A DNA stretch of 64,000 bases from a virus (lineage: Duplodnaviria; Caudoviricetes): positions 96,001-160,000 of IMG/VR virus record IMGVR_UViG_3300026549_000029; one strand, given 5' to 3'. Of this stretch, positions 5,110 to 60,352 are shown piece after piece. The position numbers were made by a program, and so were the translations under genes. Within the stretch, counting starts at the first letter, position 1, and every line of letters begins with the position of its first letter. The notes under the pieces are model-generated. The model was not told where the DNA came from. It saw only the letters and a program-made list of their open reading frames with translations, and ran no database searches.

Positions 5110-7224
5110 ATGATATCTAACTTTGAAAATTATGGTCCATTTATAAAATTAGTACAAGATGGATATATGGATTTATATACAAAAGATATAAATACTAAAA
5201 ATTATAATTCTTATTTTGATGGAATTCTTAATATCATGAGAGATGGTATTGAAGATCCAGAAGTACAAGCATTAAAAATTGGAGTTCATTTAGATGATGG
5301 AAATTTTGTTAAATTAACTGTACCTGATTTATATTTTCAATTAATTTTCTTTACATTTCCTATTTATATTGGAACTCCTATTACAGTAATTCATCTTGTA
5401 GATACAAGACAAATTACAAAACGTACTATTAGAGAATACTTTAATATGCTAATTAAGCAACATTCTAAAGATGTTGATTTTATTACTCTAAATAACTTAA
5501 TTGATGAGACTATTTACAAATTTAAATATATAGATGAATTTGCAATGTATTTATCCAATACAGTTAATTTTAAAGATACATTAGATTTAATGATAAAATA
5601 TCCTGAATTTAATGAATCTATTCATGCAGATTTATCTGGAGTTCCTATTGAAGATGTAAAAGATGTAGGAATGAAGTATACTCAAACTCAGATTAACTAT
5701 ATTAAGAATAATGATCATTGTTTAAGAGATTCTTTTATTGCACAAGAAGCTATATCTCCTAAACAATTTAAAGAAGTATCTGTAAATATTGGTACTAAAC
5801 CTGATGGACATGGAGGGATATTCCCCTATATTATTAATAATTCTTTTATGAATGGTGGAGTATCCAATCCTGAATCTTATGTTATAGATTCTTCTGTAGG
5901 AAGAACAGCACAAATATTACAGAAAATGAATGTTGGTACATCAGGAGCATTTGCAAGATTATTGGAGACTAATAATCTTGATACTTTCTTTAATCCGGAT
6001 CAAGATTATTCTTGTGATACAAAGAATTTTATTCAAGTATTTATTAAAGATTCTAACTGGTTATCTAAATATGATAAAAGATATTATAGATTTAATCCAG
6101 ATGGAATTGATTATGTATTAGATAAAGATAAAGATATTCATTTAATTGGGCAAACTCTATTATTTAGATCACCTATTACATGTGCATCTTATGCCCATGG
6201 ATACGGAATTTGTAGAAAATGTTATGGGGATCTTTATTATATTAATAGAGATATAAATCCTGGAAAAATGGCAGCAGAATTATTATCATCTAAATATACG
6301 CAGATGCTTTTATCTGCTAAACATTTGTTGGAATCTTCTGTCATAGAGATGAAATGGAATCAAGAATTCTTTGATATTTTTGAATTAAATCTTAATATGA
6401 TATCTATTCAAGAAGATATTGAATTGGAAGGATATTATATGATTCTTGATTCTAATAAATTTATATCTGATGAAGATGATGATTCTGAAGATGCTGGAAT
6501 TCAATATGAAGAATATATTCCATCTTTCGATATTAAATATTCTAATGGAAATATTATTACATTCCATACATCAGAAGAAGATAATATTTATCTTACAGAA
6601 GATCTTAATAGATTATTAAAATCTAAAAAAGTAAAAGAGAATGAAGATGGTCTTTATATAATATCTCTTGAGTTATTAAGTTCTATTCCTGTAGTATTTA
6701 CTGTAAAGATTCAAAATAAAGAATTACAGAGAACTTTGGAAAGATCTAAAAATATTATTAATAGAGATAAGGATACAAGTAGTTTTACTAAAGATGAAAT
6801 TGTTAAAGAATTTATAACTGCTAATATGGAAGGTGGAATCGATATATCTGCTATCCATTTGGAGACCATATTATCAAATCAGATGAGAGATCCTGATGAT
6901 ATTTTATCTATGCCTAATTGGTCTATAAGAAATGCACCATATAAGATTCTTACTTTAGGTTCAGCATTAAATAACAGTCCTTCAATTACAGTAACCCTAG
7001 AATATCAAAAAATTGGTAAGACTTTAATTAGTCCATTATCTGCTAAAAAGAGAAAACCTTCTGTATTTGATTTATATTTTATGGAGAAACCTCAAGATTA
7101 TGTAGAGAATAATGAAATGGTTTCTGATAAATATAAAATGAAAGAAGATAATGATCCTAATGTATTGAAAGATGTTATTTATTTTATTAATAATGAAGAA
7201 CCTAGTGACTTATGTGATGATTAA
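5110..7224 (+). CDS. Phage multisubunit RNA polymerase beta-prime subunit, C-terminal part (probably non-virion; phiKZ gp74-like)
   Basis: Bridge-helix-like GTSGAFAR, Zn site RSPITC..GICRKCYG, trigger loop TQMLLSAKH, HLETIL; followed by a helicase as in phiKZ gp74-gp75. Confidence 0.9.
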   Translation: MISNFENYGPFIKLVQDGYMDLYTKDINTKNYNSYFDGILNIMRDGIEDPEVQALKIGVHLDDGNFVKLTVPDLYFQLIFFTFPIYIGTPITVIHLVDTRQITKRTIREYFNMLIKQHSKDVDFITLNNLIDETIYKFKYIDEFAMYLSNTVNFKDTLDLMIKYPEFNESIHADLSGVPIEDVKDVGMKYTQTQINYIKNNDHCLRDSFIAQEAISPKQFKEVSVNIGTKPDGHGGIFPYIINNSFMNGGVSNPESYVIDSSVGRTAQILQKMNVGTSGAFARLLETNNLDTFFNPDQDYSCDTKNFIQVFIKDSNWLSKYDKRYYRFNPDGIDYVLDKDKDIHLIGQTLLFRSPITCASYAHGYGICRKCYGDLYYINRDINPGKMAAELLSSKYTQMLLSAKHLLESSVIEMKWNQEFFDIFELNLNMISIQEDIELEGYYMILDSNKFISDEDDDSEDAGIQYEEYIPSFDIKYSNGNIITFHTSEEDNIYLTEDLNRLLKSKKVKENEDGLYIISLELLSSIPVVFTVKIQNKELQRTLERSKNIINRDKDTSSFTKDEIVKEFITANMEGGIDISAIHLETILSNQMRDPDDILSMPNWSIRNAPYKILTLGSALNNSPSITVTLEYQKIGKTLISPLSAKKRKPSVFDLYFMEKPQDYVENNEMVSDKYKMKEDNDPNVLKDVIYFINNEEPSDLCDD

Positions 7225-7279
7225 TTTTAATATAAGGGAAGAATAATAATCTTCCCTTATATTTTTTAAAGGAAATAAT

Positions 7280-8914
7280 ATGAAAACTATAGATGACTAT
7301 AAAATGATATTACATAATTCTGCAATAGTTATAAATAATTGTAATTGGGAAGATTATCCTACATTAACTAATAAATTCTCTAACTGGGATCCATTAAGAT
7401 TTAAAAAAGAATATATTGGAATTTATTATGATAAACAGACTAGAAGATTATTTCTTCCCAGAGGAATAGATGTAGATTATGTAAAAAGAAAAATTTCTTC
7501 TAATATAAATATAGAAGATTTTACTTCTACAGTAATACATAATCACGATTTTGCTTATAATAAAAAACCTATTAAATTAAAAGTACCACCTAGAGATGAT
7601 ATACAAATAGAAGCATTAAATTTTGTATTATGTAAAGATAAATATTTAAAAAATTCTGGTAGATCACAATTTGCATTAAATCTATTTACTGGTAAAGGAA
7701 AAACATTTGTAATATCTGCAGCAATAAGTTACTTAGGAATTAGAACTATAGTAATTACTGCTCAGACTGGTATACTTGATCAATGGATAGAAAGAGTAAA
7801 AGAATATACTACTATAGATGATTCTGATATTGTAAAAATAGAGGGTGGTCCAATGATTACAAGAATACTGGAAAATAAAAGTACAGTATTAGACAAATCA
7901 TTGTATTTATGTACACATTCTACTTTACAAAGTTACGCTTCTACTCATGGATGGGATTCTATTGGTAAATTGTTTAAAACTTTAAAAATTGGTATTAAAG
8001 TATTTGATGAAGCTCATCAAAATTTTCTTAATATGAGCTTAATAGATTTTGCTGCTAGAGATGTATGGAGAACTTATTATGTTACAGCAACTCCATCTAG
8101 ATCAGATAGTACAGAAAATAAGATTTATAAATTATATATGAAAAATGTACCATCTATAGATTTATTTAATCCTGATGTAGATGCACATACTAAATATATT
8201 TCTATAAAGTATAATTCTTATCCTAAACCATCTGATATTACTAAATGTAAAACTTCAGTGTATGGAATAAGTAATCCTTTATATATTGATTATTTAATGA
8301 GAAATGAAAGATTCTGGATAATGTTTGATTATATATTTTCATTAATATATAAATCTGGAGGAAGAGCATTATTTTATATAGGAACAAATTCTGCAATATT
8401 AAAAGTAAAACAGAGAATATTATTTAATTATCCAGAATTGGAATATGATATAGGGATATATACATCTATAAGTGAAAATAAACAAGAAGAAAAGAATAAA
8501 AAATATATCCTTACTACAACTAAATCAGCAGGCGCTGGTGAAGATATTCCTCATTTAAAATATTCTGTAGTATTAGCAGAACCTTTTAAATCAGAAGTAT
8601 TAGCTAGACAGACTTTAGGAAGAACTAGAGATGATAATACTATATATATAGAACTTGTAGATGTAGGATTTAAACAATTAATATCCTATTATAATTCTAA
8701 AAAATCTGTATTTAATAAGTATGCATCTGAATGTAAAAATATGAATATTGATAATTTGACTTTATATAACTTACAAGAGGAGACTAAAATACATATTAAA
8801 AATAGATTTAAAGAAGTAATAGAAATAAATGCAGTAGGTCCTAGAGAAGCTATAATATTTACTAAAGAAAAATTAATGCCTGTTGTTATATTTAGTACAC
8901 AAATGAATGATTAA
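7280..8914 (+). CDS. Superfamily 2 DExD/H helicase
   Basis: TGKGKT, DEAH, TATP and QTLGRTR motifs. Confidence 0.9.
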   Translation: MKTIDDYKMILHNSAIVINNCNWEDYPTLTNKFSNWDPLRFKKEYIGIYYDKQTRRLFLPRGIDVDYVKRKISSNINIEDFTSTVIHNHDFAYNKKPIKLKVPPRDDIQIEALNFVLCKDKYLKNSGRSQFALNLFTGKGKTFVISAAISYLGIRTIVITAQTGILDQWIERVKEYTTIDDSDIVKIEGGPMITRILENKSTVLDKSLYLCTHSTLQSYASTHGWDSIGKLFKTLKIGIKVFDEAHQNFLNMSLIDFAARDVWRTYYVTATPSRSDSTENKIYKLYMKNVPSIDLFNPDVDAHTKYISIKYNSYPKPSDITKCKTSVYGISNPLYIDYLMRNERFWIMFDYIFSLIYKSGGRALFYIGTNSAILKVKQRILFNYPELEYDIGIYTSISENKQEEKNKKYILTTTKSAGAGEDIPHLKYSVVLAEPFKSEVLARQTLGRTRDDNTIYIELVDVGFKQLISYYNSKKSVFNKYASECKNMNIDNLTLYNLQEETKIHIKNRFKEVIEINAVGPREAIIFTKEKLMPVVIFSTQMND

Positions 8915-9050
8915 TAAGTTAGAAGGGTTAAATCCCTTCTGACTTATTTTTTTATTTTTATAATGAGATATTATTATTATGAGTAAGCAAAAGAAAGGAC
9001 TGTTTACTTATATAAATTGTATTTTTAAAAAAGGAGGAATAGTAATAAAA

Positions 9051-10814: not shown

Positions 10815-10932
10815 TACTGTTATAAAAATAAGAGAGGTTAACTTAACCTCTCTTATTTTTTTGATTTTTATATTCTTTAATACCTTTCATTAATATTATA
10901 TTTTATTTTTATATAGGGAGAATTTGATAAAA

Positions 10933-11724
10933 ATGAGTGAAGCTAGAGCAGCTATATTATTTCAATATGAAAGATTAATTGATACTATTATAGATTTTTA
11001 CAATGGAGTAACTTTGAAATTAGTAGTAGACTTAGGATTTAAAGATAAAGATAATAATAAAAAAAGAATATATGAAGAGTTTAGATATAACTCTAGTAAA
11101 TATAAAAATGAATCTTCTCTTATAACAGCTAAAAGAAATTTCACATATTATCTTAGAATAGATTACCCTTCTAATAGTTCCCTTGGATATAAATTAGAAA
11201 ATATAATTATACCTGTATATGCAATATTAGGTTTAAGAGATAAAGTAAAAGAATTTGATAATATTTTATTTAATCCTTATTATTTAAAGCCTGATAATAC
11301 TCTACAAATTGTCTCTAATGAAATAATTACAGTTACATCTAGACCAATGAAGAATTCTACTATAGAATTTAGTCATTCTTTATATGAAGGAAAAGATAAA
11401 GATGATTTAGATTATGGTGTAAATATTGGACTAAATGAAGAATTTTATTTTACAATAAGATCCATTACAAAATGGAAAGAATTTGTATATATAATCCAAA
11501 CTTGTGATTTATATTTATGGGCCTCTCAATTAGTAGCTCCATATATTACTCAATTAGTAGGAAATTCTATATCTGATACTGGTAGTTATTCTTCTAATAA
11601 AAGATATACTATAGAAACTACTTATGAACCCGAAGATTATATGTATGATAATGATTCTTCAAAAATAATAAAGACTAAACCTCTTGATCAAGAGTCTAAA
11701 ATAAAGAGCTTCTTTGATGATTAA
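10933..11724 (+). CDS. Hypothetical protein
   Basis: ORF with RBS GGGAG. Confidence 0.7.
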   Translation: MSEARAAILFQYERLIDTIIDFYNGVTLKLVVDLGFKDKDNNKKRIYEEFRYNSSKYKNESSLITAKRNFTYYLRIDYPSNSSLGYKLENIIIPVYAILGLRDKVKEFDNILFNPYYLKPDNTLQIVSNEIITVTSRPMKNSTIEFSHSLYEGKDKDDLDYGVNIGLNEEFYFTIRSITKWKEFVYIIQTCDLYLWASQLVAPYITQLVGNSISDTGSYSSNKRYTIETTYEPEDYMYDNDSSKIIKTKPLDQESKIKSFFDD

Positions 11725-11808
11725 GGGACTTATAAATAATAGACTTTGGGTTTAGCATTTTATTTTTTAAAGATTTTTATTAAGGAGGAGTTTAGAACTT
11801 GTAAAATT

Positions 11809-12318: not shown

Positions 12319-12320
12319 AG

Positions 12321-12827: not shown

Positions 12828-12839
12828 TAAGACCTCCAA

Positions 12840-14169: not shown

Positions 14170-14170
14170 T

Positions 14171-22760: not shown

Positions 22761-25688
22761 ATGAATAAAATAAATGTAAAAGATCATCCTATATTAGTAC
22801 AATATAGAGATACAATGACTAGAATATTAAATTCTAAATATCCTTTAATGAATAAAAATGATATAGAAAAAGCAGTAGAATTTTCTATACAGAAAAGATT
22901 TAAAGATTTTAATCTCAGTATACAAAATAAGTATATTGGAAAAACTGTCGATATGACAGCATTAGCCATGCTAGATTATATAAGGAATAGAGAGCCTATT
23001 ATAACTAGCTATGGTACAATGTTTAGAAAACACGATACTGTACCTAATCCAATGGGTAAAGTTATTCAAAGTTTTCTTGATTTAAGAAAAGCTCAAAAGA
23101 AAGAAATGTTCAAATATCCTAAAGGAAGTGAGATGTTTGAACGATGGAATTTATTACAAAACTTATCTAAAATTGATACAAATGGTTAATAATATAGCCC
23201 ACTTATTAGGAAACTAATAGGTTGAATACCAAGAAATTGCTGGAAAATCCTAAAGCTCTCTTGCCTATATGGAGTGAAAACAGAAATAAGTAGAGAGATG
23301 AACTATGGTGAAATAAAAGCTCTTAATATAATAAGAGTCCTAAGGTTTATTAATAATGGATGATCAGCAGCCAAGCTCTATATTATTATATAGAGAAGGT
23401 TCAACGACTAATTGTAAGGCTCAAGTGAGTCTGAAAACTTGGTACACCTAACCTAGAAATAGTATGGTGAAGATATAGTCTGTCCTTTAAGGAAATCTTA
23501 AAGAAGTTCATAAGAGAACTACATAGATTAACGACCTATGTGAACATAAGAGATTTACGGTTTAACATATTAGACCTCTTATATAGAAATATATAAGTAA
23601 AAACAGGGTTAAAATTGGAAGAAGGTTAGATTGGCCATCTAATATTCAATCAATTACGAACACTACTTTTAGTAGGGACGTTTAACGACTATCCTCTTAA
23701 GAGGAGTAGGGCTCAAGCGAGCGTGGCATTCTTGTAAATGTAAGTCCACTTAATTCGAAAATCCTGCACCTAAACCTAATTATTTGGCATGGTGATTATA
23801 TAGTCTCAGCATTCAGGTAACACTTGAAGAAGTTCATAAGAGAACTGCACAGATTAGCGACCTGTGTGAAGATACTGTGATTGGCCTTTATGTTTCTATC
23901 CTTTTTGATCTTAATATAGCACCAGCAGTTACTTCTACTGGTAGATCCCTTATATCTTCTGCTATATTATGTTTTGAAGGATTTCTTGGAAATAATGTAA
24001 AATTTTCATCTTTAAATGATATTCTTATTTTTATAGATAATGTAAGATTAGAATATTCATCTTGGCAGTATAATGATTATGAGGTTCTTCCTACAGAAGG
24101 ATTTGTATCTTTAGAAGAAGCTTTTACTAAACTTATCTTAAATTGTGGATATAAGTATACACCTTCTTATGAAGATATGGATACTGTATATCGTATATTA
24201 CAGTCCTGCAATCAAATAGAGTTAAATAGATTATTTTATAAGAATAATTTATACTGCTTTATGGATCTTCCTATAGCAAGAAATCTTATGATATCTATTA
24301 TAACTAATATGCAGACTCCTTATATAGAACCTGCAAAACCACCTAAAGAAATTGTTCCTCAATTAAATGAGTTAAGAGATCTATTAGTAGAATATGTATT
24401 CTATAATCATCAATGGATGGATAGAATGGATAGAAATAAGAATATGATTAAGAATGTTTCTATTGTATCTGATACTGATTCATCTTTTGTATCTTTAGAT
24501 GCATGGTATCATTATAATATGACATATCTTAAAGATTATGATTCTCCTATTTTACATCAGAAGATAGACCTCTTTATGAAATTAGAGAAAGAGAAGAAAT
24601 CTGATTATTGGAAAGATAAAGAAATTCCAGAATGGTATAATGCTATTAATAAAACAGAAGTAGTAGAGTTTTTAGATACTGATGAATTTGGAGATCTTAA
24701 AGATCTATCTAGATTAAATGGAATAGAATTTCTTGATAATGAAAAAGACTATGATTTTTATAATCAAGAGATTATAGAAAAGAAAAGATTAATAAATGCT
24801 TTAGAGATTATACCACAAGATAATTTAAAGTTTGCTTTAATAAATATTATGTGTTATATTTTATCTACTATTATTAATCTCTATATGATTGATTTTACTA
24901 AACAGTCTGGATCTTATAGATCAGACGAATTATGTAGAATCAATATGAAAAACGAGTTTATGATGTCCAGGATCATGTTATGTACAACGAAAAAAAATTA
25001 TGCATCCTTACAAATTTTGCAAGAAGGAAATTATCTTGGTGGAGTACTTGATGTAAAAGGAATTCCTTGTTTAACAAAATCTGTTATATCTAAAGATACA
25101 CAGAAAGCTTTAAGAAAGATTTTATTAGAAGATATTCTTACAGGAAAAGTAGATCAATTAAAATTAATAAAAGATATAGCTATACTTGAAAGAGAAATTT
25201 ATAATGATCTTAAAAGTGGTAGCAAAAAATATTTTAAACCTGCAATAATTAGAGATATTGATAATTATGAAACTCCACTTAGAATACAAGGGATTAAAGC
25301 AGCTATTGCATGGAACTATGTTAGAACAGGACTTCCTGGATTTGATTTAACTAATAGAAATTCTTTAGATATAGTAAAAATTAAAATAGATAAAAATTCT
25401 GTAATTAAAATAAGAGATCAATATCCTGCACAATATGAAAAATTTTGTGATATATTAGAATCTAAAAATAATATACAATTAGAAGGATTTAATTTACATG
25501 AAATATTTGGAGGAAAATTAGAGAATATTGCTATTCCTAAAGACCTTCCAGTTCCAGAATGGTTAATTCCTTTTATTGATTATGAATCTATTATTAATGA
25601 TAATTTAGCTACATTTCCTGTAGAATCTATAGGTTTAGGCAGTTTTGGTAATAAAAAACCTAACTATAATAATGTGGTAAAATTATAA
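22761..25688 (+). CDS. Family B DNA polymerase, C-terminal gene (motifs B and C); spliced join(22761..23186,23553..23562,23878..25688), 748 aa
   Basis: Splicing restores motif B KIDTNG-IYGL-IG in frame (2247 nt); motif C SDTDS; KKNYA; KGI. Confidence 0.9.
23187..23552 (+). mobile_element. Group I intron 1 (ORF-less, IA2-like), 366 nt
   Basis: 5' exon ends in U paired to IGS gcc; P aattgctggaaa, Q tcagcagcc, R ggttcaacgacta, S atatagtc; terminal G. Confidence 0.9.
23563..23877 (+). mobile_element. Group I intron 2 (ORF-less), 315 nt
   Basis: P1 ggtt/gacc with U-G pair; P7 gacta/tagtc; P3 cagggtt/aatcctg; 3' end nearly identical to intron 3; omega G at 23877. Confidence 0.85.
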
Positions 25689-25749: not shown

Positions 25750-26928
25750 ATGATTATAGATAAAAATGGAAATAAACATGTAGAAATAGGTGATAAATAT
25801 GGTAAACTTACTGTGATAGAAAAATCTAATAATGATTATATAACTTCATTCGGATATCATATTCCAAAATATATATGTAAATGTGAATGTGGTAATTATA
25901 CAGAAATATTAGAATATAGTTTAACAAATAATCGTACAAAATCATGTGGCCATTGTAGTAATATTCATATTGGAGATAAATTTGGAAAATTAACAGTATT
26001 AGAAAAAGATAAAAATGATTGTATATTACCATCAGGAAGGCATATTCCAAAATATATATGTAAATGTGAATGTGGCAATATAATATCTGTATTAAAATAT
26101 ACTTTACTTAGAAATCAAAAATTATCATGTGGTAATTGTAATTCAATTCATATTGGAGATAAATTTGGAAAATTAACAGTAATATCTAAAGCCAGTGATT
26201 ATATAAATCCTAATTCTGGAAATTGTATTAAAAGATGGCTTTGCAAATGTGAGTGCGGTAATACTACAATAGTAAGAGATAATGATTTAAAACGTGGTAT
26301 AACTAAATCATGTGGATGCTTGATTATTGAACAATTAAAAAAGAGAAATAGTACTCATTTATTATCTAATACACTATTATATAGAGAATATAGTAGTATG
26401 ATACAAAGATGCTATAACCCAAACAATATTAGATATCCAGAATATGGTCAAAGAGGAATACAAGTTTGTAGAGAATGGTATAATTCAGATTATAAAAAAG
26501 GATTTGATCCAGAATGTATTAATATATTTTATAATTGGGCAATAAATAATGGGTATAAAGAAGGTTTAACTATTGATCGAATCAATGTTAATGGTAATTA
26601 TGAACCTAGTAATTGTAGATGGATACCAAAAGAATATCAAGCACATAATAGAAGAAATAGTATAAAAATAAATCTTAATGGAGAAATATATGATATAGGA
26701 CAAATTTCTAGTATATTAGGTATAGATTATATGTTTTTATATCATCGATTAAAGAAGAATAATTATAATTTATCTTCTTTATTTACTTATATTACAGATC
26801 AATATGGTAATACTAGACCTTATATATTAGATAAATATAATAATCCTATACCTATTAATATTATATACTTTATAGATGAATATGGATTTCCTATATCACA
26901 AGATAAGATAAATGAATCTAATATCTAA
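25750..26928 (+). CDS. Free-standing HNH homing endonuclease with three Cys-rich N-terminal repeats
   Basis: Three IGDK(F/Y)GKLTV...CKCECGN...SCG units; M..RCY, YG.RGI.VC..W, TIDRINVNGNYEPSNCRW. Confidence 0.9.
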   Translation: MIIDKNGNKHVEIGDKYGKLTVIEKSNNDYITSFGYHIPKYICKCECGNYTEILEYSLTNNRTKSCGHCSNIHIGDKFGKLTVLEKDKNDCILPSGRHIPKYICKCECGNIISVLKYTLLRNQKLSCGNCNSIHIGDKFGKLTVISKASDYINPNSGNCIKRWLCKCECGNTTIVRDNDLKRGITKSCGCLIIEQLKKRNSTHLLSNTLLYREYSSMIQRCYNPNNIRYPEYGQRGIQVCREWYNSDYKKGFDPECINIFYNWAINNGYKEGLTIDRINVNGNYEPSNCRWIPKEYQAHNRRNSIKINLNGEIYDIGQISSILGIDYMFLYHRLKKNNYNLSSLFTYITDQYGNTRPYILDKYNNPIPINIIYFIDEYGFPISQDKINESNI

Positions 26929-36009: not shown

Positions 36010-36741
36010 ATGATAATTGATAAAAATGGCTATAAGCATGTAGAAATTGGAGATAGATATGGTAGACTTACAGTAATAGAAGAAGCTCCAAAACATAGAG
36101 AACCTAATGGTCATCTTGTTAGAATGTTTAGATGTAAATGCGATTGTGGAAATGAAACTATTGTAGCAGGGCATTCTCTTACAAAATCTAATAGACCCAC
36201 TATTAGTTGTGGATGTATAAAAATAGATTTTCCAGCAGGGCTTACACATGGATTAAGTAAGACTGCAGTATATAGACATTATATTGCTATGAAATCAAGA
36301 TGTACTAACCCTAATGCATCTGATTATTATAGATACGGAGGAAGAGGAATTAAAATTTGTAATAGATGGTTAGATCCTGAAGACGGATTTATGAATTTCT
36401 ATGCTGATATGGCTCCTATATATGTAGAAGGATGGACTCTTGATAGAATTAATAATGAAGGAGATTATTGCCCTGAAAATTGTAGATGGGCTCCAAAATG
36501 GGTACAATCAAATAATACTAGAAAAAATGTACATATAACTTTAAATAATGAAACTATGACTATGACAAATTGGATTAGAGCATATGGTGTTAATGAGAAT
36601 GTTGCTAGAACAAGATTAAAAAGAGGTTGGCCTATAGAAGAGGTATTTAGAGGTAGACAAGAGAATCCTAATCCTATTAATGTTGTTTATTTTTTAGATG
36701 AATTTGGTAGTCCTATTCCTCAAGATCAAATTAAAGATTAA
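36010..36741 (+). CDS. Free-standing HNH homing endonuclease
   Basis: YGRLTV, CKCDCGN, MKSRC, YGGRGIKIC.RW, TLDRINNEGDYCPENCRWA. Confidence 0.9.
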   Translation: MIIDKNGYKHVEIGDRYGRLTVIEEAPKHREPNGHLVRMFRCKCDCGNETIVAGHSLTKSNRPTISCGCIKIDFPAGLTHGLSKTAVYRHYIAMKSRCTNPNASDYYRYGGRGIKICNRWLDPEDGFMNFYADMAPIYVEGWTLDRINNEGDYCPENCRWAPKWVQSNNTRKNVHITLNNETMTMTNWIRAYGVNENVARTRLKRGWPIEEVFRGRQENPNPINVVYFLDEFGSPIPQDQIKD

Positions 36742-36836: not shown

Positions 36837-39149
36837 ATGAGATCAAATAATTTTGCTGATCAAGTTGAAGAAGCTTATTCTAATTTAGATTCTAAAGAAC
36901 AAATGCTAGGTAAAGGACTAATTCAACCTAATACGGCGACGAATAGTGGCAGCAGGAAAATAATGATGAGCACCCATACGTCGCATCATCTTACCCTCTC
37001 TCAGGCGCAACCACCTTATATATCCACTGGTTTTGAAAATATGTTTGGAGATCATTCTTCTTCTATTATTAATTCTTCATCTGATCTTTTTGATAGAGTT
37101 AATGATAATAATAAAAATGATTCTTCATCATCTCACGATAAACCATATCTTTCATCTTACTCTTCTCCTGTAGAAGTAATAGCTAAGATATCTAAGTTTT
37201 CTTATGCACCTAATCATCATTATTATCTTATAGTAAAAGATTCAGATTCTAATTCTCTTGATGTTATAGAAAGAGTATCATATAAATATCAGACAGAATG
37301 TTATGGATTTCTCTATAATAATTCTGTTCTTGACTCTTATTCTTTTCCTGGTTCTATAATTCCACCTAATACTATTCTTCGTCGTTCTACTGGTTTTGAT
37401 GCTTATGGTAATAAAGCAGATGGTTATAATATAAATACTGCTTATATGGCATTAGATCATAATATGGAAGATTCTGTTATTATCTCTGATACTTGTTCAG
37501 AAAAACTTTCTGCACCTCTTATCAGAAATGTAGAAATCATTCTTAATGAAAATGATATTCCATTAAATATTTATGGGGATGATAATATTTATAAAGTATT
37601 TCCTGATATTGGGGAAGATGTAAAAGATGGAATTCTTCTTGCATATAGAAGAGAGAAAAGAGAAGAAGCTATATACACTCAATCAGTATCTAGATTGCAG
37701 CAGATAATGATGAGTGATGATAAGATTACTATTAAAGGAAAAGTAATAGATATTCAATTATACTGCAATAATCCTGAATATATTTCTAAATCTACATATA
37801 ATCAGCAGTTTTATGCTTATTATCAAGATAGAATTAGAATGTGTACAGAAATTATGAATGTAGTAGGTCCTTATAAAACTCAAGGATATAATTTAAGTTA
37901 TAGATTGGACAAATTATATTCAAGATCCATTAGTGAAGTTAATGGAAAGAAATTTATGGAGAAAAAATTATTCTCTAATATTAGAATTGAATTTACTGTA
38001 ATGGAAAATAGACCTTTAGGTGTAGGAGATAAAGTAGCAGATAGATATGGAGGAAAAGGAGTTATTTCTAAAATAATTCCTAATGAACTAATGCCTAAGA
38101 TGGCTAATGGAATGCCTATAGAGATGATTAAAAATTCCTCTACTATGTATAATAGAGAAAATGCTGGACAGATATTTGAATTAGAAATTAATTATATCTC
38201 TATGTGTATTTTAGATAGAATAAAATCTGGGTATTATGGAGATGATATAGAAGCAGCAATGGATGAGATTTTAAAATTTGTTAAACTTCAGTCTCCCGTA
38301 CAATATGAAGAAATGAAGAAATATATTGATTCTTATGATATACAAGGAGTCATATATTTCTTGGAGAGTATATTGCAAAAGACTTGTATTCCTATTTCAA
38401 ATAATCCTATGTCTGAAACTATGGATATAGATAAATTAAGAAGATTATACGAGGAATTTCCTTGGATTAATCAATCATATTTGATGGTTCCTATTGTAGA
38501 TTCTAAAGGAAATTATAGATTTGTAAAATCTAGAAGACCTGTAATAGCAGCACCTATATATTGTTTAAGATTAAAACAATTTGCAGAAGAAAAATTTTCT
38601 GCTGCAAGTTTAAGTTCTACTAATATTAAAAATGAGAATGCTAAGAGTAAAGCTAGTAAAAATTATAGAGAACCTAATTCTAATACTCCTATTAAGTTTG
38701 GTCAGATGGAATCTGGAGATTTTGATCATATGGGGACAGAATATGTAGTAATCAATCTCTTATTGCATTCTTTATCTCCACATGGTAGAAGATTAGTAGA
38801 ACAAGCTGCTATAGGTGATCCTTATAATGTAGATATTAAATTGGATTCTAAATCAAAAAATAGATCTGCAGAAATCTTAAATACCAGATTAAAAGCTATG
38901 GGCTATAGATTAGTATTTAAGAAGATTAAGAAACATAAGAAATATGCATTATTAACTCCTGCATTAGAATTCTTTGAAAGGTCTCCTGAAGATCCTATTG
39001 AAGTTGTAGATTTTATGGAAGAAGGATATGACTTCGATAAATGGTATAAGACTCTATATGAGATAGAAAAAATCAAGAAGAATAGTGTTGCTATGATTAA
39101 TGCTATTTCATTCACTGAAGATTCTTCTCATGTACCTGAAGATGAGTAA
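36837..39149 (+). CDS. Phage RNA polymerase beta subunit, C-terminal part (phiKZ gp71/73-like)
   Basis: NSGSRKIM, EDSVIIS, GDKVADRYGGKGVISKI, R.N.GQ, KFGQME. Confidence 0.92.
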   Translation: MRSNNFADQVEEAYSNLDSKEQMLGKGLIQPNTATNSGSRKIMMSTHTSHHLTLSQAQPPYISTGFENMFGDHSSSIINSSSDLFDRVNDNNKNDSSSSHDKPYLSSYSSPVEVIAKISKFSYAPNHHYYLIVKDSDSNSLDVIERVSYKYQTECYGFLYNNSVLDSYSFPGSIIPPNTILRRSTGFDAYGNKADGYNINTAYMALDHNMEDSVIISDTCSEKLSAPLIRNVEIILNENDIPLNIYGDDNIYKVFPDIGEDVKDGILLAYRREKREEAIYTQSVSRLQQIMMSDDKITIKGKVIDIQLYCNNPEYISKSTYNQQFYAYYQDRIRMCTEIMNVVGPYKTQGYNLSYRLDKLYSRSISEVNGKKFMEKKLFSNIRIEFTVMENRPLGVGDKVADRYGGKGVISKIIPNELMPKMANGMPIEMIKNSSTMYNRENAGQIFELEINYISMCILDRIKSGYYGDDIEAAMDEILKFVKLQSPVQYEEMKKYIDSYDIQGVIYFLESILQKTCIPISNNPMSETMDIDKLRRLYEEFPWINQSYLMVPIVDSKGNYRFVKSRRPVIAAPIYCLRLKQFAEEKFSAASLSSTNIKNENAKSKASKNYREPNSNTPIKFGQMESGDFDHMGTEYVVINLLLHSLSPHGRRLVEQAAIGDPYNVDIKLDSKSKNRSAEILNTRLKAMGYRLVFKKIKKHKKYALLTPALEFFERSPEDPIEVVDFMEEGYDFDKWYKTLYEIEKIKKNSVAMINAISFTEDSSHVPEDE

Positions 39150-41381: not shown

Positions 41382-43756
41382 GAGATATTATTATAGGTAA
41401 TATCTTAAATGATTTAAGACATGGAAGTCTTAAACTTGTATATGATAATAAACAATATCTTAATGATTATGCAATGATGTTGTATAATAAAACAGGATTA
41501 ACACAAGATGAACTATATGATTTTAGAGATATTATCTTAATTGCTAATATTACTTATAATGATACCGATAAAGAATTATTACCTATTGAAGATGGTTTTT
41601 ATGATTTACTTTTAGAAAAATATAAAAAATATGATCCAAATTTTCAAGTAGGGGCTGAAGTAATTAATTTTACATCATCTGAACCTATTATTACTAATGA
41701 AAACGGTGAAGTAATTAAACCTATGAGAGAGGCTATTACATTTGATCCTATTCCTAGTGAACAAGATAATCATTTTGTTAATAGTATTATCATAGATGAA
41801 AGAAAATATCTTGATGCTAGAGATTTCTTTGTACCTAATCCTTTAGGTGAAGCTTATATTACAAAGAGATTGCATGATACTTCTCATAATCATCCTGAAT
41901 TAGTAGGCACTCTAGATAAATGCAAGTTTGTATTAGATAGAGATGCTAAAACTAGAGGAGTTTATGAAGATTCTAATGTAAAAATTGTTGAAAGAGATTT
42001 TATTATGGATCATATTAATAAAGGAATTATTAATCCTAATATGATCTTTGATATGGTTTTAGAATTAAAATATGATGGTATTTCTGTTGAAGCTGATTGT
42101 ACAGATGAAATAGTATCTGCAAGATCTAGAGGCGATACTGGTATAGGTAAAGCTTCTGATCTTACACCAATATTAAAAGGATATAAGTTCCCTCATAGAA
42201 CTCCTAATAGTCCTATGATTGGAGTTAAATTTGAAGCAATAATCACACAATATGATTTACCTTTCTTTAATGCAGCTAAAGGATATGAATATAAGAATTG
42301 TAGATCTGCTATAGTTGGATTATTTTCTTCTTCTGATGCTTGGAAGTATAGAGATTTTATAACTCTTGTACCTTTAGCAGTTGAAGAAAATGTATATAAA
42401 ACTATATGTCATTCAGATAGAGTAGAAGAAATAGACTTTTTAAATAAAGAATTTATTTCTAAAGGATGCCCTTTAAGATCCGTAATGATAAGAGGAAATT
42501 ATCTAGAAAATCTTGTTTGGATTAATATGTTTACACAGAATGCTGAATCTTCTAGAGCTTGGGTACCATTTATGTACGATGGTATTGTAGTATCTTATAG
42601 AGATGAAGCTATTAGACAGACTTTAGGAAGAGAAAATTTTATTAATAAATATTCTATAGCAGTAAAGTTTAATCCTCTCAGAAAAGAAACTATATTTAGA
42701 GGATATACCTATACTGTGGGTCAAGATGGTTCTATTACTCCAATGATTCATTATGATCCTGTAGAATTTTATGGAACTATCCATCCTAAATCTTCTGGTC
42801 ATTCTTATGCTAGATTTAAAGAATTGAATTTACATATTGGAGACATGTTAGCTATAGAATATGTCAATGATGTTATGCCATATGTATATAAACCTTTTAA
42901 TGATTATAATTTAGATAATGAAAAAGTTATGCCTGCTGAAGTATTTCCTACTAATTGTCCTGTTTGTGGTGGACCTATTGAAATATCTGAATCTGGTAAG
43001 TCTGCTAAATGCGTAAATCCTAATTGTGGTGGTAGACAGTTATCTCGTATGGTAAATATGTTTGCTAAGTTAGGATTAGAAGGTTTTGGAGAAGCTACAG
43101 TACAACAGTTAGGCTATTATCATCTTAAGGATTTATTAGAAGAGATGATAGAACAAGGAGATGGAGCAGCTAAATTTATTCATAAAGGGTTTGGCCCTAT
43201 AGAAGCTATGAATATAGCTAATCAATTAATAGGATTATTGACTAATCCCATTACAGATGCTAAACTTTTGGGAGCTATTGGTTTTACAGGTATATCTACT
43301 AAAACTTGGGAAACTATATTAGCTAAAATTAGTTATTCTAAATTAAAAGAATTATTTACAATGATAGATCCAGGAAAATTCTATTATAAGAAAGGCATAG
43401 AATTTATGTCATCTATCAAAGGTATCGGTCCATCTACTGCAGATACCATAGCAAGAGAGTTCAAATATTTTTATAAAGATATTGATTATATGATTCAGCA
43501 TGGTAATGTTATAGAATATATTCCAGTACAAGGAAAAATTATAAAATTATCTGGTACTAGAGATAAGAATTTAGTTAAGTTCTTAACTGATAATGGATTT
43601 ATTGTAGATTTTAATAGAACTATAACTAAAGATGTAGCTTATGTTGTTGTACCTCATCCTGGTTTTACTAGTTTTAAAACTAAGATGGCTAATGATTATA
43701 ATATTCCTGTAGTACCTATGGAAGATATTATGAATAATATTGAAAGATATAAATAA
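41378..43756 (+). CDS. ligA: NAD-dependent DNA ligase
   Basis: ELKYDG, SRGD, YDGIV, AVKF, OB fold, CPVCG...C...C zinc finger, HhH (KGIGP), BRCT-like C-terminus. Confidence 0.92.
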   Translation: MRDIIIGNILNDLRHGSLKLVYDNKQYLNDYAMMLYNKTGLTQDELYDFRDIILIANITYNDTDKELLPIEDGFYDLLLEKYKKYDPNFQVGAEVINFTSSEPIITNENGEVIKPMREAITFDPIPSEQDNHFVNSIIIDERKYLDARDFFVPNPLGEAYITKRLHDTSHNHPELVGTLDKCKFVLDRDAKTRGVYEDSNVKIVERDFIMDHINKGIINPNMIFDMVLELKYDGISVEADCTDEIVSARSRGDTGIGKASDLTPILKGYKFPHRTPNSPMIGVKFEAIITQYDLPFFNAAKGYEYKNCRSAIVGLFSSSDAWKYRDFITLVPLAVEENVYKTICHSDRVEEIDFLNKEFISKGCPLRSVMIRGNYLENLVWINMFTQNAESSRAWVPFMYDGIVVSYRDEAIRQTLGRENFINKYSIAVKFNPLRKETIFRGYTYTVGQDGSITPMIHYDPVEFYGTIHPKSSGHSYARFKELNLHIGDMLAIEYVNDVMPYVYKPFNDYNLDNEKVMPAEVFPTNCPVCGGPIEISESGKSAKCVNPNCGGRQLSRMVNMFAKLGLEGFGEATVQQLGYYHLKDLLEEMIEQGDGAAKFIHKGFGPIEAMNIANQLIGLLTNPITDAKLLGAIGFTGISTKTWETILAKISYSKLKELFTMIDPGKFYYKKGIEFMSSIKGIGPSTADTIAREFKYFYKDIDYMIQHGNVIEYIPVQGKIIKLSGTRDKNLVKFLTDNGFIVDFNRTITKDVAYVVVPHPGFTSFKTKMANDYNIPVVPMEDIMNNIERYK

Positions 43757-45977: not shown

Positions 45978-47927
45978 GTGGATCAAAACTTCTCTTTTAA
46001 TTATCAACAAATTCCTATGCCAGAAAATAGAGATCCTTATTCTGGTAATATTGGAAGTATGATGGTATCTCCTAGTGATAAACCATCTATTGATAAATTT
46101 ATGTATAAATTTAATAAAGAAAATAGAGCTCCATTTAATGATTATTGGTTTCAAAGAAATGATGAAGATCTTATTGAAGGAATGAAACAAGTAATCTTAT
46201 CCTGTCAAAGAGATAAATACTTTGTATTGAAAGTATTGAACTTTGAAACTATTAAAGATTATAATGAAATTAATAGAGCTCTCTATGAATACTATTCTGC
46301 TAAAACTAAGAATGGTAAAAAGATTGATAATAATTATGAGTATATTAATCTTAGAGATTCAGATATAATGTTACTTAAAGTAATTTATTATGTCAAATTA
46401 AATGTACCAGAGAATAAGATCAGAATTGATTCTAAAACTGGAGAATTAGAAAAGAGTGAAGGGATTGTAAATGTATTAATAGCATTACCAAGATATGTAG
46501 ATAAGTATTATTTTAGAATTCTTGGTAATTATTATAATCCTATATTCCAGATTGTAGATGGAAGCACTTATAATAATTCTACATCTAATAGTAAGACTCA
46601 ATCTATTACTTTAAAGACACAGTTTATGCCTATTAAAGTATACAAAGAGTATTATGATTTAGTAGACATTTGTGATAAAGAATCTCATAGATGTGTATTA
46701 TTTGCAAGCTATGTGTTTACTAAGAAAACAGATACAATGAAATTTATTTTAGGACGTTATGGCTTATATGGAACCCTTGAAATGCTGGAATTAGAAGGTA
46801 TTTATGTATTTCCGTATGAGAACCATCAGGTATTAGATCCTAAAACTTATTATAATTTTGCGGATAAACATAATAAGATAATTGTATCTGTAGTAAAGAG
46901 ATTATTTGATAAAGATAATGTAACACAATCTTTTTGTTATACAATTTTAAAGAGTGTTAAAAAGCTTAATAAATTTAATGATATATTTGATCCAAGATAT
47001 TGGAATAAAATATTAGGAGCAGATTTTCAATCTGCCACTTTAGATAAAGGGATTCCTGTACTTGATTCTTTGGAAAGCATTTATGATTTGAAAACTAAAC
47101 ATTCTATAAGATTGCCATTAGAAGATAAAGCTGATACTTATTGCATTCTTAGATGGATGATGAGAGAGTTCTCTTATTTAAAACAAAGAGATAATATTGA
47201 TATATCTACTAAACATCCAAGAAAAGCAGATGAATATCTTCCTGCTATCTATGCTAAGAAAATTTCTACTGGTATTTATAGAATTTCTGACAAAGGAAAA
47301 AATATTACCTTTAAAGATGTGACAAGAGTAATTGATACAGCACCAGATTATATACTTAAGTCTATTAACTCTGCTAACTTAGTAGATTATGTAGATCTTG
47401 TAAATGATAATGATGCTGAATTGGCTTTAGCTTATACTTATAAAGGAATTTCTGGTCTTGGAGATCAGGGAAATGGTACAGCAGTACCTATTATCTATAG
47501 AAGTGTACATCCTTCTCATTTAGGTAGAGTAGATTTAGACTCTTCTTCTAATTCAGATCCTGGTTTATCTGGAATGATTTGTCCTATGGCAAAAGTATAT
47601 GATGGTTCTTTTTCTGATTATAAAGAACCTAATGAATGGAGGAACTTTTATAAAGAGACATTACAAGAATTAAATAGTCTTTATGGTATAAAGCAAGCTA
47701 TAGAATTAAAGAAAACTCTTGGATTATCATATGATTATGTAAAAGAAGATATGGTAAGAGAGACTATAGAAACATATCATAGATTAATTCCTCTTGTTAT
47801 TGATATTGAAGGTAAGAAAGATTATACTTTAGGTGCTGTTATGGATATAGAGGAACAAGTACTTGTAGAATCTGATTCTGAAGATGGTGTAGGAGAAATT
47901 ACTACAACTATGGAAAGAATAACCTGA
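45978..47927 (+). CDS. Phage RNA polymerase beta subunit, N-terminal part (phiKZ gp123-like)
   Basis: YFRILGN.Y.PIFQ, YRSVHPSHLGRVDLDSSSNSDPGLSG.ICP; GTG start after GAGGAGG. Confidence 0.88.
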   Translation: MDQNFSFNYQQIPMPENRDPYSGNIGSMMVSPSDKPSIDKFMYKFNKENRAPFNDYWFQRNDEDLIEGMKQVILSCQRDKYFVLKVLNFETIKDYNEINRALYEYYSAKTKNGKKIDNNYEYINLRDSDIMLLKVIYYVKLNVPENKIRIDSKTGELEKSEGIVNVLIALPRYVDKYYFRILGNYYNPIFQIVDGSTYNNSTSNSKTQSITLKTQFMPIKVYKEYYDLVDICDKESHRCVLFASYVFTKKTDTMKFILGRYGLYGTLEMLELEGIYVFPYENHQVLDPKTYYNFADKHNKIIVSVVKRLFDKDNVTQSFCYTILKSVKKLNKFNDIFDPRYWNKILGADFQSATLDKGIPVLDSLESIYDLKTKHSIRLPLEDKADTYCILRWMMREFSYLKQRDNIDISTKHPRKADEYLPAIYAKKISTGIYRISDKGKNITFKDVTRVIDTAPDYILKSINSANLVDYVDLVNDNDAELALAYTYKGISGLGDQGNGTAVPIIYRSVHPSHLGRVDLDSSSNSDPGLSGMICPMAKVYDGSFSDYKEPNEWRNFYKETLQELNSLYGIKQAIELKKTLGLSYDYVKEDMVRETIETYHRLIPLVIDIEGKKDYTLGAVMDIEEQVLVESDSEDGVGEITTTMERIT

Positions 47928-49043: not shown

Positions 49044-49340
49044 ATGGAAAATATAGCATCTACTGGCATAGATAAATTAAAAAATGAAAAACCAATAGAA
49101 GCTCTTTATTTTTTAGATAATACATGTCCAAAATGTGGTGATAAACTAGAATTAATAACAAGAAAATTGGATAATATTAATATAGCTATAAGATATGAAT
49201 GTAAAAAATGTGGTTATATTTGTCCAATAAAATATGATATGAAAGACTCTATATGTGATAAAGATAAATTTAATATGCCAAAATATAGTCCATTATATGA
49301 TAGAAGTATTTATGAATTTATAAAATATTTTGGAGAATAA
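49044..49340 (+). CDS. Zinc-ribbon protein
   Basis: CPKCG...CKKCG. Confidence 0.7.
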   Translation: MENIASTGIDKLKNEKPIEALYFLDNTCPKCGDKLELITRKLDNINIAIRYECKKCGYICPIKYDMKDSICDKDKFNMPKYSPLYDRSIYEFIKYFGE

Positions 49341-53071: not shown

Positions 53072-53076
53072 ATAAA

Positions 53077-56292: not shown

Positions 56293-56404
56293 AGGAAGGT
56301 ATAATTACCTTCCTTTTTATTTTTTAAAAATTAATATTTTTAATTAGATGATATAATATTGTATAAAAGAACAATAATTTTTCTATTAGAGAGGAGAAAT
56401 AAAA

Positions 56405-56767: not shown

Positions 56768-56786
56768 CCTCATATTTATTTTTTTC

Positions 56787-57833: not shown

Positions 57834-57963
57834 TGTAAACTCCTTTTTGAAAATGTATTATAATATTGAATCATTACATTCGGTATAATTATTTAGAAGT
57901 ATTATAAATTAAAGTTTATAAAATTTTTGACTTTATTATAATTTAATTTAGGAGAAAATATAA

Positions 57964-60352
57964 ATGGCTAAGAGAAAGAGTTTTATTTTAAATAATAAAC
58001 AATATGAATTAGTAATTCCAGGATATCCAAAAGGTTCTGATATAACAGTAATAAATACTTCTTATATACCTAGAAAGAAAGTAGAAAATGAAGAAGGAAA
58101 TATTGTATATGAGAAAGATTATATAGCAATATTATTTAGAGATAATAAGACTGAAGAAAAACATATTCATATTATAAAAGAACCAGTATATACTTTTTAT
58201 AAACTTAAAGATGATATAATCCCTACAGATTATGTATTATTCTTTATTCCTAAAGAAGATGTAGAACCTTATACCTGTAAATATTCTAATATACTACAAG
58301 CTATAGCTGAAGTTACTAATATGATAGATTTCTATCAATATAATGTAACTAATAAAATCTTTAGTGAGAATAAGAAATTACATACTATTCCTTCTATATT
58401 TATGTCAGATATGAATATAGAAAATTATTATAGATTTTTATTTGGATTATCTTATCCTAATAATATCTTTAAATTATCTAAAGCATATCTTGATATAGAA
58501 ACCGATGGGCGTTATGCTATGGGAGATTTTCCAGAACCTGGAGAAGTACCTATTAATGCTGTAGCATATTGTGATGAAGCTCATAATATTACATATCAAT
58601 TTATCTTTGATGATCCTAGAAATCCTGCACTTCAGGAATATAAGAGACAATTTTCTAGAAAAGATATATTAGGAGAATTAAAGAATTTTGTAATTAATGC
58701 TGTAGGAGGATATAAGAAAGCAGTAAAATTTGGTGTTGATAATATGGAATATAAATTAATCTTCTTTAAAGATGAATTAGAAATGTTAGAAAGATTATTT
58801 GATATTATTAATATTTCTTCACCAGATTTTCTTAATATATGGAATATGTCATTTGACTTATCTTATATATTAGCAAGAATATATGAGTTAGGTGGAGATG
58901 TAATAGAAACTGTATGTGATAAAAGAGTTACTCCTAAATTCTTAAGATATTATATAGATGAGAGAAATAAAAATAATTTTGAAGAAAGAGGAGATTTTGT
59001 AGCTATATCTTCTTATACAGTATGGAATGATCAAATGATAACATTTGCATCAAGACGTAAAGGTAGAGCAGCATATCCATCTTTTGCATTAAACGCTATT
59101 GGAGAAGATGTAGCAAATGTTAAGAAATTAGATTATTCTAATATCACTAAAGATATTAATATGCTTCCTTATATAGATTTTAAGACATTCAGTTTTTATA
59201 ATGTGATGGATGTTATTGTACAGAAATGTATAGAAAGAATGACATCTGATTGCGATTATATATTTACTAAGTGTTTAGTAAATAATACAAACTATTCTAA
59301 ATGTCATAGACAGAGTGTATATTTAGCTAATAGATTTGCTAAAGATTTTTATAATTATGGATATATTATTGGTAATAATAAAAATATCTATAATGAGAAA
59401 CCCGACGCTAAGTTTTGTGGTGCTCAAGTCGGCAATCCATTGAATAATAATCCAGATATTACATATCATATTAATGGTAAGCCTACTATGCTAGTAGAGA
59501 ACTGTGTGGATTTCGATTGATTTTAGTCGCTTTTTAGTAGTAATACTGAGAAGAAAATCTTATTGAATTGCTGGGAAAGGCTAAAGCTCTCTTGCCTATA
59601 TGGAGTGAAAACAGAAATAAGTAGAGAGATGAACTATGGTGAAATAAAAGCTCTTAATATAATAAGAGTCCTAAGGTTTATTAACAATGTCTAATCAGCA
59701 GCCAATCTTTATAATGTAAAGAAGGTTCAACGACTATCCGAAAGGAGTAGGGCTTAAGCAAGCTCGAAGTGATAAGAGGTCCAGGATATACTGGATCGTG
59801 ATATAGTCTCAGCATTCAGGTAACACCTGAAGAAGTTCATAAGAGAACTGCACAGATTAGCGACCTGTGTGAAGATTACTGTACTCCTCACTTTATCCAT
59901 CTATTATCTTAGAAAATAATATAGCACCAAATACACAATATGGTAGAATTATTATTGAAGATGAATCCGATCCCAATAAAGTATATTCTCGTAATGAGCA
60001 TCCTGATATGTTTAGTAATGATGATGATGAAGCTAAATATTCTCGTGGTGGAGAATTTTTAGATAATCTGATGACTTCTAATATATTAGAATTCTGTTGG
60101 AGATGGCTTAACTTAGGAGATATTTATGATGTAGAATCTGACTTGAGAGAATTTTATAATTTTAATTCTTATGAAGGTCCTTCTATAGATTATTCTCTTA
60201 AAGATGCTATTTATATTAGTAAATCTAATATGACTTCTGTATTTGAAGATATTCCTTATGGAAATAATCCTGTTGTAATTTCTGATGTAGCTCTTGACAA
60301 AACAGTAAGTGATAATCTTACTGAAGAAATAAAGAAAGGAGCTATTTTATAA
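57964..60352 (+). CDS. Family B DNA polymerase, N-terminal gene (3'-5' exonuclease and motif A); spliced join(57964..59517,59882..60352), 674 aa
   Basis: ExoI YLDIETD, ExoII WNMSFD, ExoIII YNVMDV; splicing restores motif A DFD-YSSLYPS in frame with ORF 60008..60352. Confidence 0.92.
59518..59881 (+). mobile_element. Group I intron 3 (ORF-less), 364 nt
   Basis: P1 cgat/gtcg with U-G pair; P aattgctggg, Q tcagcagcc, R ggttcaacgacta, S atatagtc; omega G at 59881. Confidence 0.92.

Follow-up and report, generated by a model that had tools for sequence, protein, structure and literature searches.

Unrelated DNA- and RNA-acting proteins of an uncultured phage share a short peptide, which is likely a linear docking tag read by one putative partner. 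The window analyzed here comprises 64,000 nucleotides of IMG/VR record IMGVR_UViG_3300026549_000029, i.e., bases 96001-160000 of a 287,868-bp genome with a G+C content of 27.7%. The peptide changes in lockstep between phage lineages, is selected at the level of the peptide, is restricted to enzymes acting on DNA or RNA, and occupies flexible positions that are specific to the lineage. As read from the sequences, the full tag is hydrophobic-hydrophobic-x-[A/V/G/P]-[I/V/L/M]-x-[F/Y]-hydrophobic-acidic, which is longer than the [EDNP][AVGI][IVL]x[FI] pattern described in the initial annotation of the window. The partner is probably a single, phage-encoded receptor. Its role would be to bring the enzymes together on phage DNA; it might be a platform bound to the DNA, or the tag might work as an address label of the replication site. 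A literature search found no published description of this tag.

Genomes and relatives

The C-half of the RNA polymerase beta subunit (betaC) is ~29% identical to its counterparts in Bacillus phages AR9 and PBS1. Family scans of the open reading frames (ORFs) of the window recovered non-virion RNA polymerase beta'C, betaC, and betaN (the C-half of beta' and both halves of beta), a ResIII/superfamily 2 (SF2) helicase, a split family-B DNA polymerase (PolB), an NAD-dependent ligase, SbcC, and two HNH endonucleases. The studied genome (G000) was compared first with the IMG/VR relatives G001, G002, G004, and G005, which are near-complete except for G005 (half a genome); their helicases share ~90%, 68%, 45%, and 42% identity with that of G000, respectively. 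Lineages G006 and G007 were added later, while G009 and AR9 served as tail-less comparison genomes, i.e., genomes lacking the protein extensions described below. Among related helicase loci, 96 were matched and 80 were kept.

Lineage-private spellings

The tag reads x[AVG][IVL]xF in the studied genome, and the same tail and loop positions are respelled in six related lineages, with AIxF, PIYF, GMxY, MCx[IV], and [MLP]LF[EKR] as the relatives' spellings. When counted over the whole proteome and compared with the composition expectation, the spellings are over-represented 2.4- to 18-fold (P 2e-6 to 7e-21), each only in its own genome, and remain at background level elsewhere:

GM.Y in G005: observed 31, expected 3.1 (P 7e-21)
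PI[YF]F in G004: observed 18, expected 1.0 (P 4e-17)
AI.F in G002: observed 37, expected 15.5 (P 2e-6)
MC.[IV] in G006: observed 21, expected 4.3
[MLP]LF[EKR] in G007: observed 19, expected 5.6

Alignments covering six lineages reveal a lockstep change of spelling across about 10-15 orthologous sites in unrelated proteins. Such a change at many unrelated sites implies that the copies either have one reader or recognize one another, and that this recognition evolves as well. A phage-encoded, fast-evolving receptor is favored because the beta clamp or another conserved hub of the host would keep the motif constant (PMC11139829). For the helicase and beta'C tails of 14 lineages, the best shared 6-mer scores 19.2 within the same genome vs 16.3±0.85 between different genomes (permutation p=0.0012). 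The choice among synonymous codons varies at the tag positions and tracks genome usage, which indicates that selection acts on the peptide; a DNA-level signal (a promoter or another site translated by accident) was rejected on the same grounds. In G008 (L142), the helicase and beta'C tails share a very different element, [RQ]AYxxYLxK, which may be another spelling or a different docking helix.

In the proposed mechanism, the tag would have been added to flexible N-termini, C-termini, and loops of proteins acting on replicating phage DNA, and all of its copies would be read by one partner. If this partner changes fast, the tag of every client would have to change along, and the joint change would give each phage lineage its private spelling.

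Carriers and position of the tag

Proteins tagged in several lineages include DnaB-like and SF2 helicases, both PolB halves, NAD ligase, and RNase H, as well as non-virion RNA polymerase beta'C, betaC, a gp226-like subunit, and (at one site) betaN, so that four of the five non-virion subunits are carriers. A 277-aa protein related to AR9 gp241 and small zinc-ribbon proteins belong to the same group, while RusA, SbcD, a PD-(D/E)XK exonuclease, and a PC4-like protein are tagged in single lineages. Orthogroups positive in at least two lineages amount to 10 of the 23 acting on DNA or RNA vs 0 of the 27 with virion, packaging, or lysis functions (Fisher 1.1e-4). An equal frequency in structural proteins was not seen. 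In the virion RNA polymerase subunits, no lineage-consistent tag was found, only two isolated pattern matches. In the lineages compared, no tag match was found in UvsX, Dda, primase, or the single-stranded DNA-binding protein (SSB); topoisomerase II gave only three loose-pattern matches, all in one G007 subunit.

Tags concentrate at protein ends: of 25 tags in G004, 20 are located in the N-terminal 20 or C-terminal 45 residues, regions that account for 22% of the total protein length. Relative to their AR9 orthologs, most clients are extended by 59-111 aa, and neither the extensions nor the shared motif were found in AR9 and the tail-less relative G009. A search of AR9 for an equivalent motif found none. 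A different, SSB-mimicking docking peptide may be present in this tail-less relative, as the DnaB-like helicase AR9 gp007 (L103:3583-5268) ends in ...DSGIPF, like the acidic-IPF tip of bacterial SSB proteins.

The linkers around the tag vary while its core is conserved, and the tails and insertions that contain it are absent from AR9 and tail-less relatives. In the AlphaFold2 model of the SF2 helicase, the predicted local distance difference test (pLDDT) score is ~90 in the core, 70-71 at residues 511-530, 55 at residues 531-540, and 39 at the end. The true sites lie in lineage-specific flexible segments, as had been proposed, and no buried, conserved core strands were seen among them. A short conserved island within flexible, lineage-specific segments and a recurrence in unrelated proteins above chance are both generic features of short linear motifs, and both are observed here.

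The HNH endonucleases, both intron-borne and free-standing, also carry the motif, in agreement with the initial annotation, and they bear the spelling of the resident genome: N[AGIV][IV]YF in G000-G002. In G001 and G002, the HNH paralogs end in N[AG]I[YF]F. Their G006 counterparts end in QMCSMV...QMCTIID, and IMCKTV is a further HNH spelling of that genome.

Comparison with chance

Chance is one alternative: AT-rich DNA yields proteins with much I, F, N, D, and E, in which the peptide could arise by accident, alongside ordinary beta strands. The simple pattern of the initial annotation comes close to such a background, as [EDNP][AVGI][IVL]x[FI] matches 197 times in 300 ORFs vs 160±12 in shuffled proteins and a composition expectation of 162 (the reversed pattern matches 118 times), and no tail enrichment of this pattern was found among the ORFs of this genome. 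Clusters of three matches occur in the helicase tail, the PolB-C loop, and the betaC tail, the only ones genome-wide (3 vs 0.8±0.9 in shuffles); their count is not an independent test, since the pattern was designed on those clusters. With the stricter pattern [EDNPQ][AVG][IVLM]xF, 16 of 46 matches fall within the last 45 residues vs 7.2 expected (p=0.001). The case from this genome alone is suggestive at best.

A scoring matrix was seeded only with sites that switch spelling in other lineages, taken from alignments, with a cut-off of 11.5 corresponding to 3 false matches per shuffled proteome. It retrieves 23 sites in this genome vs 3 in shuffles, including two non-seeds: the HNH tail of ORF 36010-36741 and the zinc-ribbon ORF 49044-49340. 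Together with lineage-specific enrichment at P values down to 7e-21, the switching of spelling at orthologous sites, and the restriction of carriers by function, this result refutes the chance explanation, whose probability is negligible. The motif proposed in the initial annotation as shared by many DNA-acting proteins is therefore real, by virtue of the lineage-switching orthologous sites, whereas its regular expression alone is barely above chance.

All 16 peptides cited as examples are present in their respective ORFs, and 12 of them are true sites in alignments with four relatives, where the spelling switches by lineage. These comprise KDVIYF in beta'C; REAIIF and MPVVIF in the helicase; TPALEF, IEVVDF, and INAISF in betaC; TEVVEF and LNGIEF in PolB-C; KDAIYI in PolB-N exon 2; REAITF in the ligase; and both HNH tails. 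KEVIEI in the helicase is probably a further one. Three were rejected, in keeping with ordinary core strands: AEVINF in the ligase and INALEI in PolB-C lie in core segments that every lineage has, where the own spelling of G004 and G005 is absent, and KGVKF in SbcC has no consistent counterpart in other lineages (a single AI.F match, in G002 only).

Tag sites in the window

The following sites were located (positions in the window):

7159..7200, + strand: C-terminal tail of non-virion RNA polymerase beta' C-half (ORF 5110-7224, aa 684-697; core DVIYF, then INNEE)
8792..8911, + strand: C-terminal tail of the SF2 (ResIII) helicase (ORF 7280-8914, aa 505-544; two to three tags, EVIEI, EAIIF, PVVIF)
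10945..10962, + strand: possible N-terminal tag of a 266-aa protein (ORF 10924-11724; RAAILF)
24645..24752, + strand: internal loop of PolB C-half (ORF 23877-25688, aa 257-292; two tags, EVVEF and NGIEF)
26845..26904, + strand: C-terminal tail tag of HNH endonuclease 1 (ORF 25750-26928, PINIIYFIDEYG; PHROG 374 HNH)
36667..36726, + strand: C-terminal tail tag of HNH endonuclease 2 (ORF 36010-36741, PINVVYFLDEFG)
38946..39128, + strand: C-terminal tail of non-virion RNA polymerase beta C-half (ORF 36837-39149, aa 704-764; three tags, PALEF, EVVDF, NAISF)
41714..41761, + strand: N-terminal insertion of the NAD-dependent DNA ligase (ORF 41378-43756, aa 113-128; REAITF)
47688..47708, + strand: weak tag variant in non-virion RNA polymerase beta N-half (ORF 45978-47927, aa 571-577; IKQAIEL)
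49092..49133, + strand: N-terminal tag of a 98-aa zinc-ribbon protein (ORF 49044-49340, PIEALYFLDNTC; matrix score 19.0, non-seed)
60191..60232, + strand: PolB N-half tail, second ORF piece (ORF 60008-60352; KDAIYI)

In the RNA polymerase, the beta'C tail column reads VIYF here, AIYF in G001 and G002, PIYF in G004, and GMMY in G005, preceded by a variable linker; the AR9 ortholog is 73 aa shorter and lacks the tag. The three aligned sites of betaC correspond to AIEF/AIEF/AISF in G002, PLYF/PIFF/PIYF in G004, and GMVY/GMTY/GMVY in G005, while the G007 tail contains five tandem copies (four QKMLFE and one QELLFK) and the AR9 beta C-half is 105 aa shorter. The betaN site, with L replacing F, appears to be the least certain; its column reads NPLEF in G004, EAMLF in G005, and VMCKII in G006.

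The helicase tails of relatives hold 1-3 copies in their own spelling (QAIEF/PAIYF, TPIYF, PGMVY/PGMIY/RGMVY), and helicase relatives below ~37% identity have no tail. The columns of the PolB-C loop contain AISF/AIEF, ALYF/PIYF, or GMEY/GMVY, with VMCEIV in G006, and that of the ligase contains PAITF, QPIYF, or KGMEY, with VMCSIV in G006; the AR9 ligase is 111 aa shorter. The PolB-N tail contains KDAVYF and AIIF in G001, QAIYF and AISF in G002, KPLYF in G004, and GMSY/GMQY/GMLY in G005. PolB N-half is encoded by two ORF pieces in the window (57964-59520 and 60008-60352) but by a single ORF in G001 (676 aa) and in G004 and G005 (637-727 aa). An intron or insert probably fills the 490 bp that separate the two pieces.

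The tag of HNH endonuclease 2, which is absent from the matrix seeds, scores 16.3 against the cut-off of 11.5. Small proteins with a tag followed by CxxC are also present in relatives, with PIYF in G004, GMIY in G005, and PLFK in G007. The RAAILF peptide of the 266-aa protein is a tentative tag, aligned in a single lineage to the N-terminal MEQGMTYLD of G005.

Candidate receptors

Profile searches of the phage genome gave no match to DNA_pol3_beta (PF00712), although a host clamp might be available, and no match to PCNA_N (PF00705). The gp45-slide_C (PF09116) and clamp-loader DNA_pol3_delta2 (PF13177) families had no match at E<=1, and a strongly diverged clamp could escape sequence detection. 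No match to phiKZ Rhc was found in five proteomes, and none at E<=1 to phiKZ chimallin gp54 in five genomes, the latter in a single-sequence search that a very distant homolog could escape.

By synteny, a candidate is located directly downstream of the DNA polymerase:

60353..60979, + strand: candidate receptor, 208-aa ORF beginning at the PolB N-half stop codon

Each of the nine genomes examined, the tail-less G009 among them, has an ORF of 174-234 aa directly 3' of PolB-N; for the 208-aa ORF, a profile search against PDB found no family. Phylogenetic profiling yields eight genes that tail-bearing genomes share and that G009 and AR9 lack, a profile that is confounded by common descent and reflects one clade. 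One of the eight is a 392-aa family (genome 52549-53727), which comprises 600 clusters at a 50% identity level. It occurs in each of the 13 tail-bearing genomes tested, strongly in the five further ones, and is absent or with only a distant match in five tail-less ones. A zincin-like HExxH motif occurs in 55/140 members (~40%) and is lost in G000, G001, G002, G004, and G005, while D93, R361, C46, and W218 are more conserved than the metal site. The AlphaFold2 model of the 392-aa protein (pLDDT 88.8) gives a weak Foldseek match to the M48 protease BepA (E 0.05), and a VIA-align match is limited to the C-terminal three-helix bundle. No Pfam domain was found in longer fused members of the family. 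PDB profile searches with three other receptor candidates were empty or insignificant, and no informative ESM Atlas match was found for the 222-aa ORF at 45308-45976 of the window.

Complex prediction with two Whirly/PC4-like SSB cores, the N-domain of a Zn-ribbon/Q-rich protein, and the beta'C tail returned a score of 0.00, which counts neither for nor against. A likely phage SSB is encoded at genome 263609-264430; its Atlas model is similar to PC4/Whirly/PurA folds, its ends are flexible and N/S-rich, and its acidic tip, I-x-[DN]-L-E-D, is conserved. The product of genome 67631-68545 combines a conserved C-H-C-C zinc ribbon and a helical domain with a Q/P/M/G-rich low-complexity tail of ~130 residues; in several lineages, it adjoins a small acidic tag-bearing protein (65311-65850). 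A 348-aa protein (window 56787-57833, - strand), present in all tail-bearing relatives and undetected in G009/AR9, consists of a flexible N-part rich in T/P/K, a coiled central part, and a conserved C-domain whose last residue is always aromatic. Finally, a 346-aa protein (genome 276531-277571) conserved in all relatives, G009 included, contains a hyper-acidic, probably disordered segment over its first 230 residues, in which D[DN]FT[ML][DEN]D occurs four times, and then a helical C-domain.

Alternative explanations

Several observations weigh against a docking tag read by one receptor. The tag is degenerate in this genome, where the simple pattern is barely enriched, and a single register is uncertain across lineages (I-x-F in some, adjacent L-F or I-V in others). 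Several lineages were sampled through two tails only and show no clear shared 6-mer. Sequence searches for known hubs did not find the receptor gene, and the partner need not be a folded receptor and could be a host protein. The common docking peptide put forward in the initial annotation is supported on evolutionary grounds by the lockstep change at ~10-15 sites, the restriction to DNA/RNA enzymes, and the local spelling of the HNH nucleases, while genes for the hubs it suggested (clamp, shell) were not detected.

Two specific forms of the docking reading might account for the tag. In one, the clients would dock on a ring-shaped or clamp-derived DNA-bound protein, a sliding-clamp or processivity 'toolbelt' coupling late transcription to replication. 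The client list and the placement of the tag in C-tails, N-termini, and loops match those of clamp-binding motifs (PMC11139829), and the G007 spelling QKMLF/QRNLF approaches Qxx[L/M][F/L], all of which leans towards a clamp-like platform. An ORF directly follows PolB-N in all nine genomes, and chimalliviruses with a similarly split PolB use the clamp-derived subunit Rhc (PMC13648687). However, beta clamp, PCNA, gp45 C-domain, and clamp-loader families are not detectable in the genome, Rhc of phiKZ is unmatched in the five proteomes, the spellings of G000, G002, G004, G005, and G006 fit neither Q-phi-x-[L/M]-[F/L] nor the PCNA-interacting protein (PIP) box, and the ORF after PolB-N belongs to no recognizable family and is shared with tail-less G009. 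This form is possible but tentative. In the other, which is rather doubtful, the tag would act as an address label that directs proteins to a replication compartment or condensate: every separately translated polypeptide would need a copy of its own for recruitment or import, and a private spelling would exclude the proteins of co-infecting relatives. The separate tagging of four non-virion RNA polymerase subunits and both PolB halves, together with the untagged virion RNA polymerase, which arrives with the DNA, leans towards such a label, as do up to 3-5 copies per tail, the species-specific import into the chimallivirus nucleus (PMC11087766), and phage-encoded low-complexity proteins as potential scaffolds. 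Its weak points are the chimallin homolog not found in five genomes, the lack of precedent (chimalliviruses have no linear import signal, PMC11087766), the AR9-like phages, for which no compartment is known, and UvsX, Dda, primase, SSB, and (bar three loose matches in G007) topoisomerase II, which are untagged though DNA-acting.

Enzyme recognition and homotypic sticking are less likely than the docking forms. The tag could serve as a cleavage site or degron for a phage protease (e.g., the zincin-like 392-aa family) or as a modification site, given its location mostly at protein ends, the presence of that family in 13/13 tail-bearing genomes with absent or distant matches in tail-less ones, the HExxH of 55/140 members, and the weak BepA match. 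Nevertheless, the tag is fully maintained in the five genomes that lost HExxH, cutting within the PolB and ligase loops would be destructive, and the gene profile, confounded by common ancestry, is shared by at least seven other genes, which makes this explanation improbable. Even less probable is a system with no receptor, where tags bind each other through homotypic beta-strand or sticker contacts, carriers co-assemble, and every copy must match the others. With self-recognition, no separate gene would be needed to explain the concerted change; in addition, the beta-prone, aromatic tag has acidic 'gatekeeper' flanks, and some clients are multivalent; however, the GMxY and MCx[IV] spellings are not aggregation-prone, and the helicase tags are modeled (with moderate to low confidence) in short helices and coil rather than strands.

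Significance

Hub-and-tag systems (beta clamp, PCNA, SSB tails) are a cellular way of coordinating replication and repair. A phage clade with its own docking tag, where the spelling is new in each lineage and the client set constant, constitutes an unusually clean natural experiment in motif-reader co-evolution. The tagging of the late RNA polymerase (four of five subunits) alongside the replisome suggests that late transcription is physically coupled to replication in these phages, for which neither a clamp nor a nucleus is known. The homing endonucleases bear the resident spelling; reaching the hub therefore seems to matter to mobile elements and possibly in phage competition. The tag could also be used as bait for finding the receptor, and it flags many proteins of unknown function as DNA-acting. 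On a more speculative level, a clade of gut jumbo phages related to AR9 might use a linear, lineage-private 'postal code', by which a putative phage receptor admits proteins to the replicating genome, with fast turnover as co-infecting relatives and homing endonucleases compete. Such a code would then be without precedent as a linear signal that targets proteins to a phage replication site, and selfish nucleases would have to acquire the resident code to spread.

Comparison with known systems

In phages T4 and RB69, the gp45 clamp binds the C-terminal tails of gp43 polymerase and of the late-transcription proteins gp33 and gp55. The tag resembles this system in that hydrophobic-acidic terminal peptides tie replication and late transcription proteins to a DNA-bound ring. 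Unlike in T4, homologs of gp45 and gp44/62 were not found here, the tags are located on core RNA polymerase subunits instead of a sigma factor or co-activator, and the clients are much more numerous, with several copies per client. PCNA also recruits clients by PIP boxes, including PolB, ligase, RNase H, nucleases, and helicases; the hub-and-tag layout and the client set are similar, whereas the PIP pattern Qxx[ILM]xx[FY][FY] was not found at any tag site.

The bacterial beta-clamp motif reads Q-phi-x-[L/M]-[F/L] or Q-phi-x-[L/M]-x-[F/L] (PMC11139829). There too, one short peptide is found in C-tails, N-termini, and loops, polymerases, ligase, repair enzymes, and regulators share a hub, acidic flanks aid binding, and multi-subunit clients may hold several copies (PMC11139829). 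The tag consensus does not have the sequence of this motif: Gln is missing and the spacing is aliphatic-x-aromatic in most lineages, with only QKMLF/QRNLF of G007 being close. Furthermore, the beta-clamp motif is conserved across phyla, while the tag changes from lineage to lineage, its clients include RNA polymerase subunits and homing endonucleases, and a clamp or loader gene is undetected in the phage.

In chimalliviruses, Rhc is a clamp-derived, DNA-binding accessory subunit of a split PolB that serves replication and transcription (PMC13648687, PMC13648698). The division of a jumbo phage PolB into N and C halves is common to both systems; Rhc, however, binds via a folded interface on DNAP-C and not via a shared peptide (PMC13648687, PMC13648698), and RNase H is a client here. 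PicA-dependent import into the chimallivirus nucleus relies on a folded surface, no linear signal having been found (PMC11087766), unlike the linear tag described here, and the shell gene was not found in the five genomes. The two nevertheless have in common a species-specific recognition that selects the DNA-acting proteins reaching phage DNA (PMC11087766).

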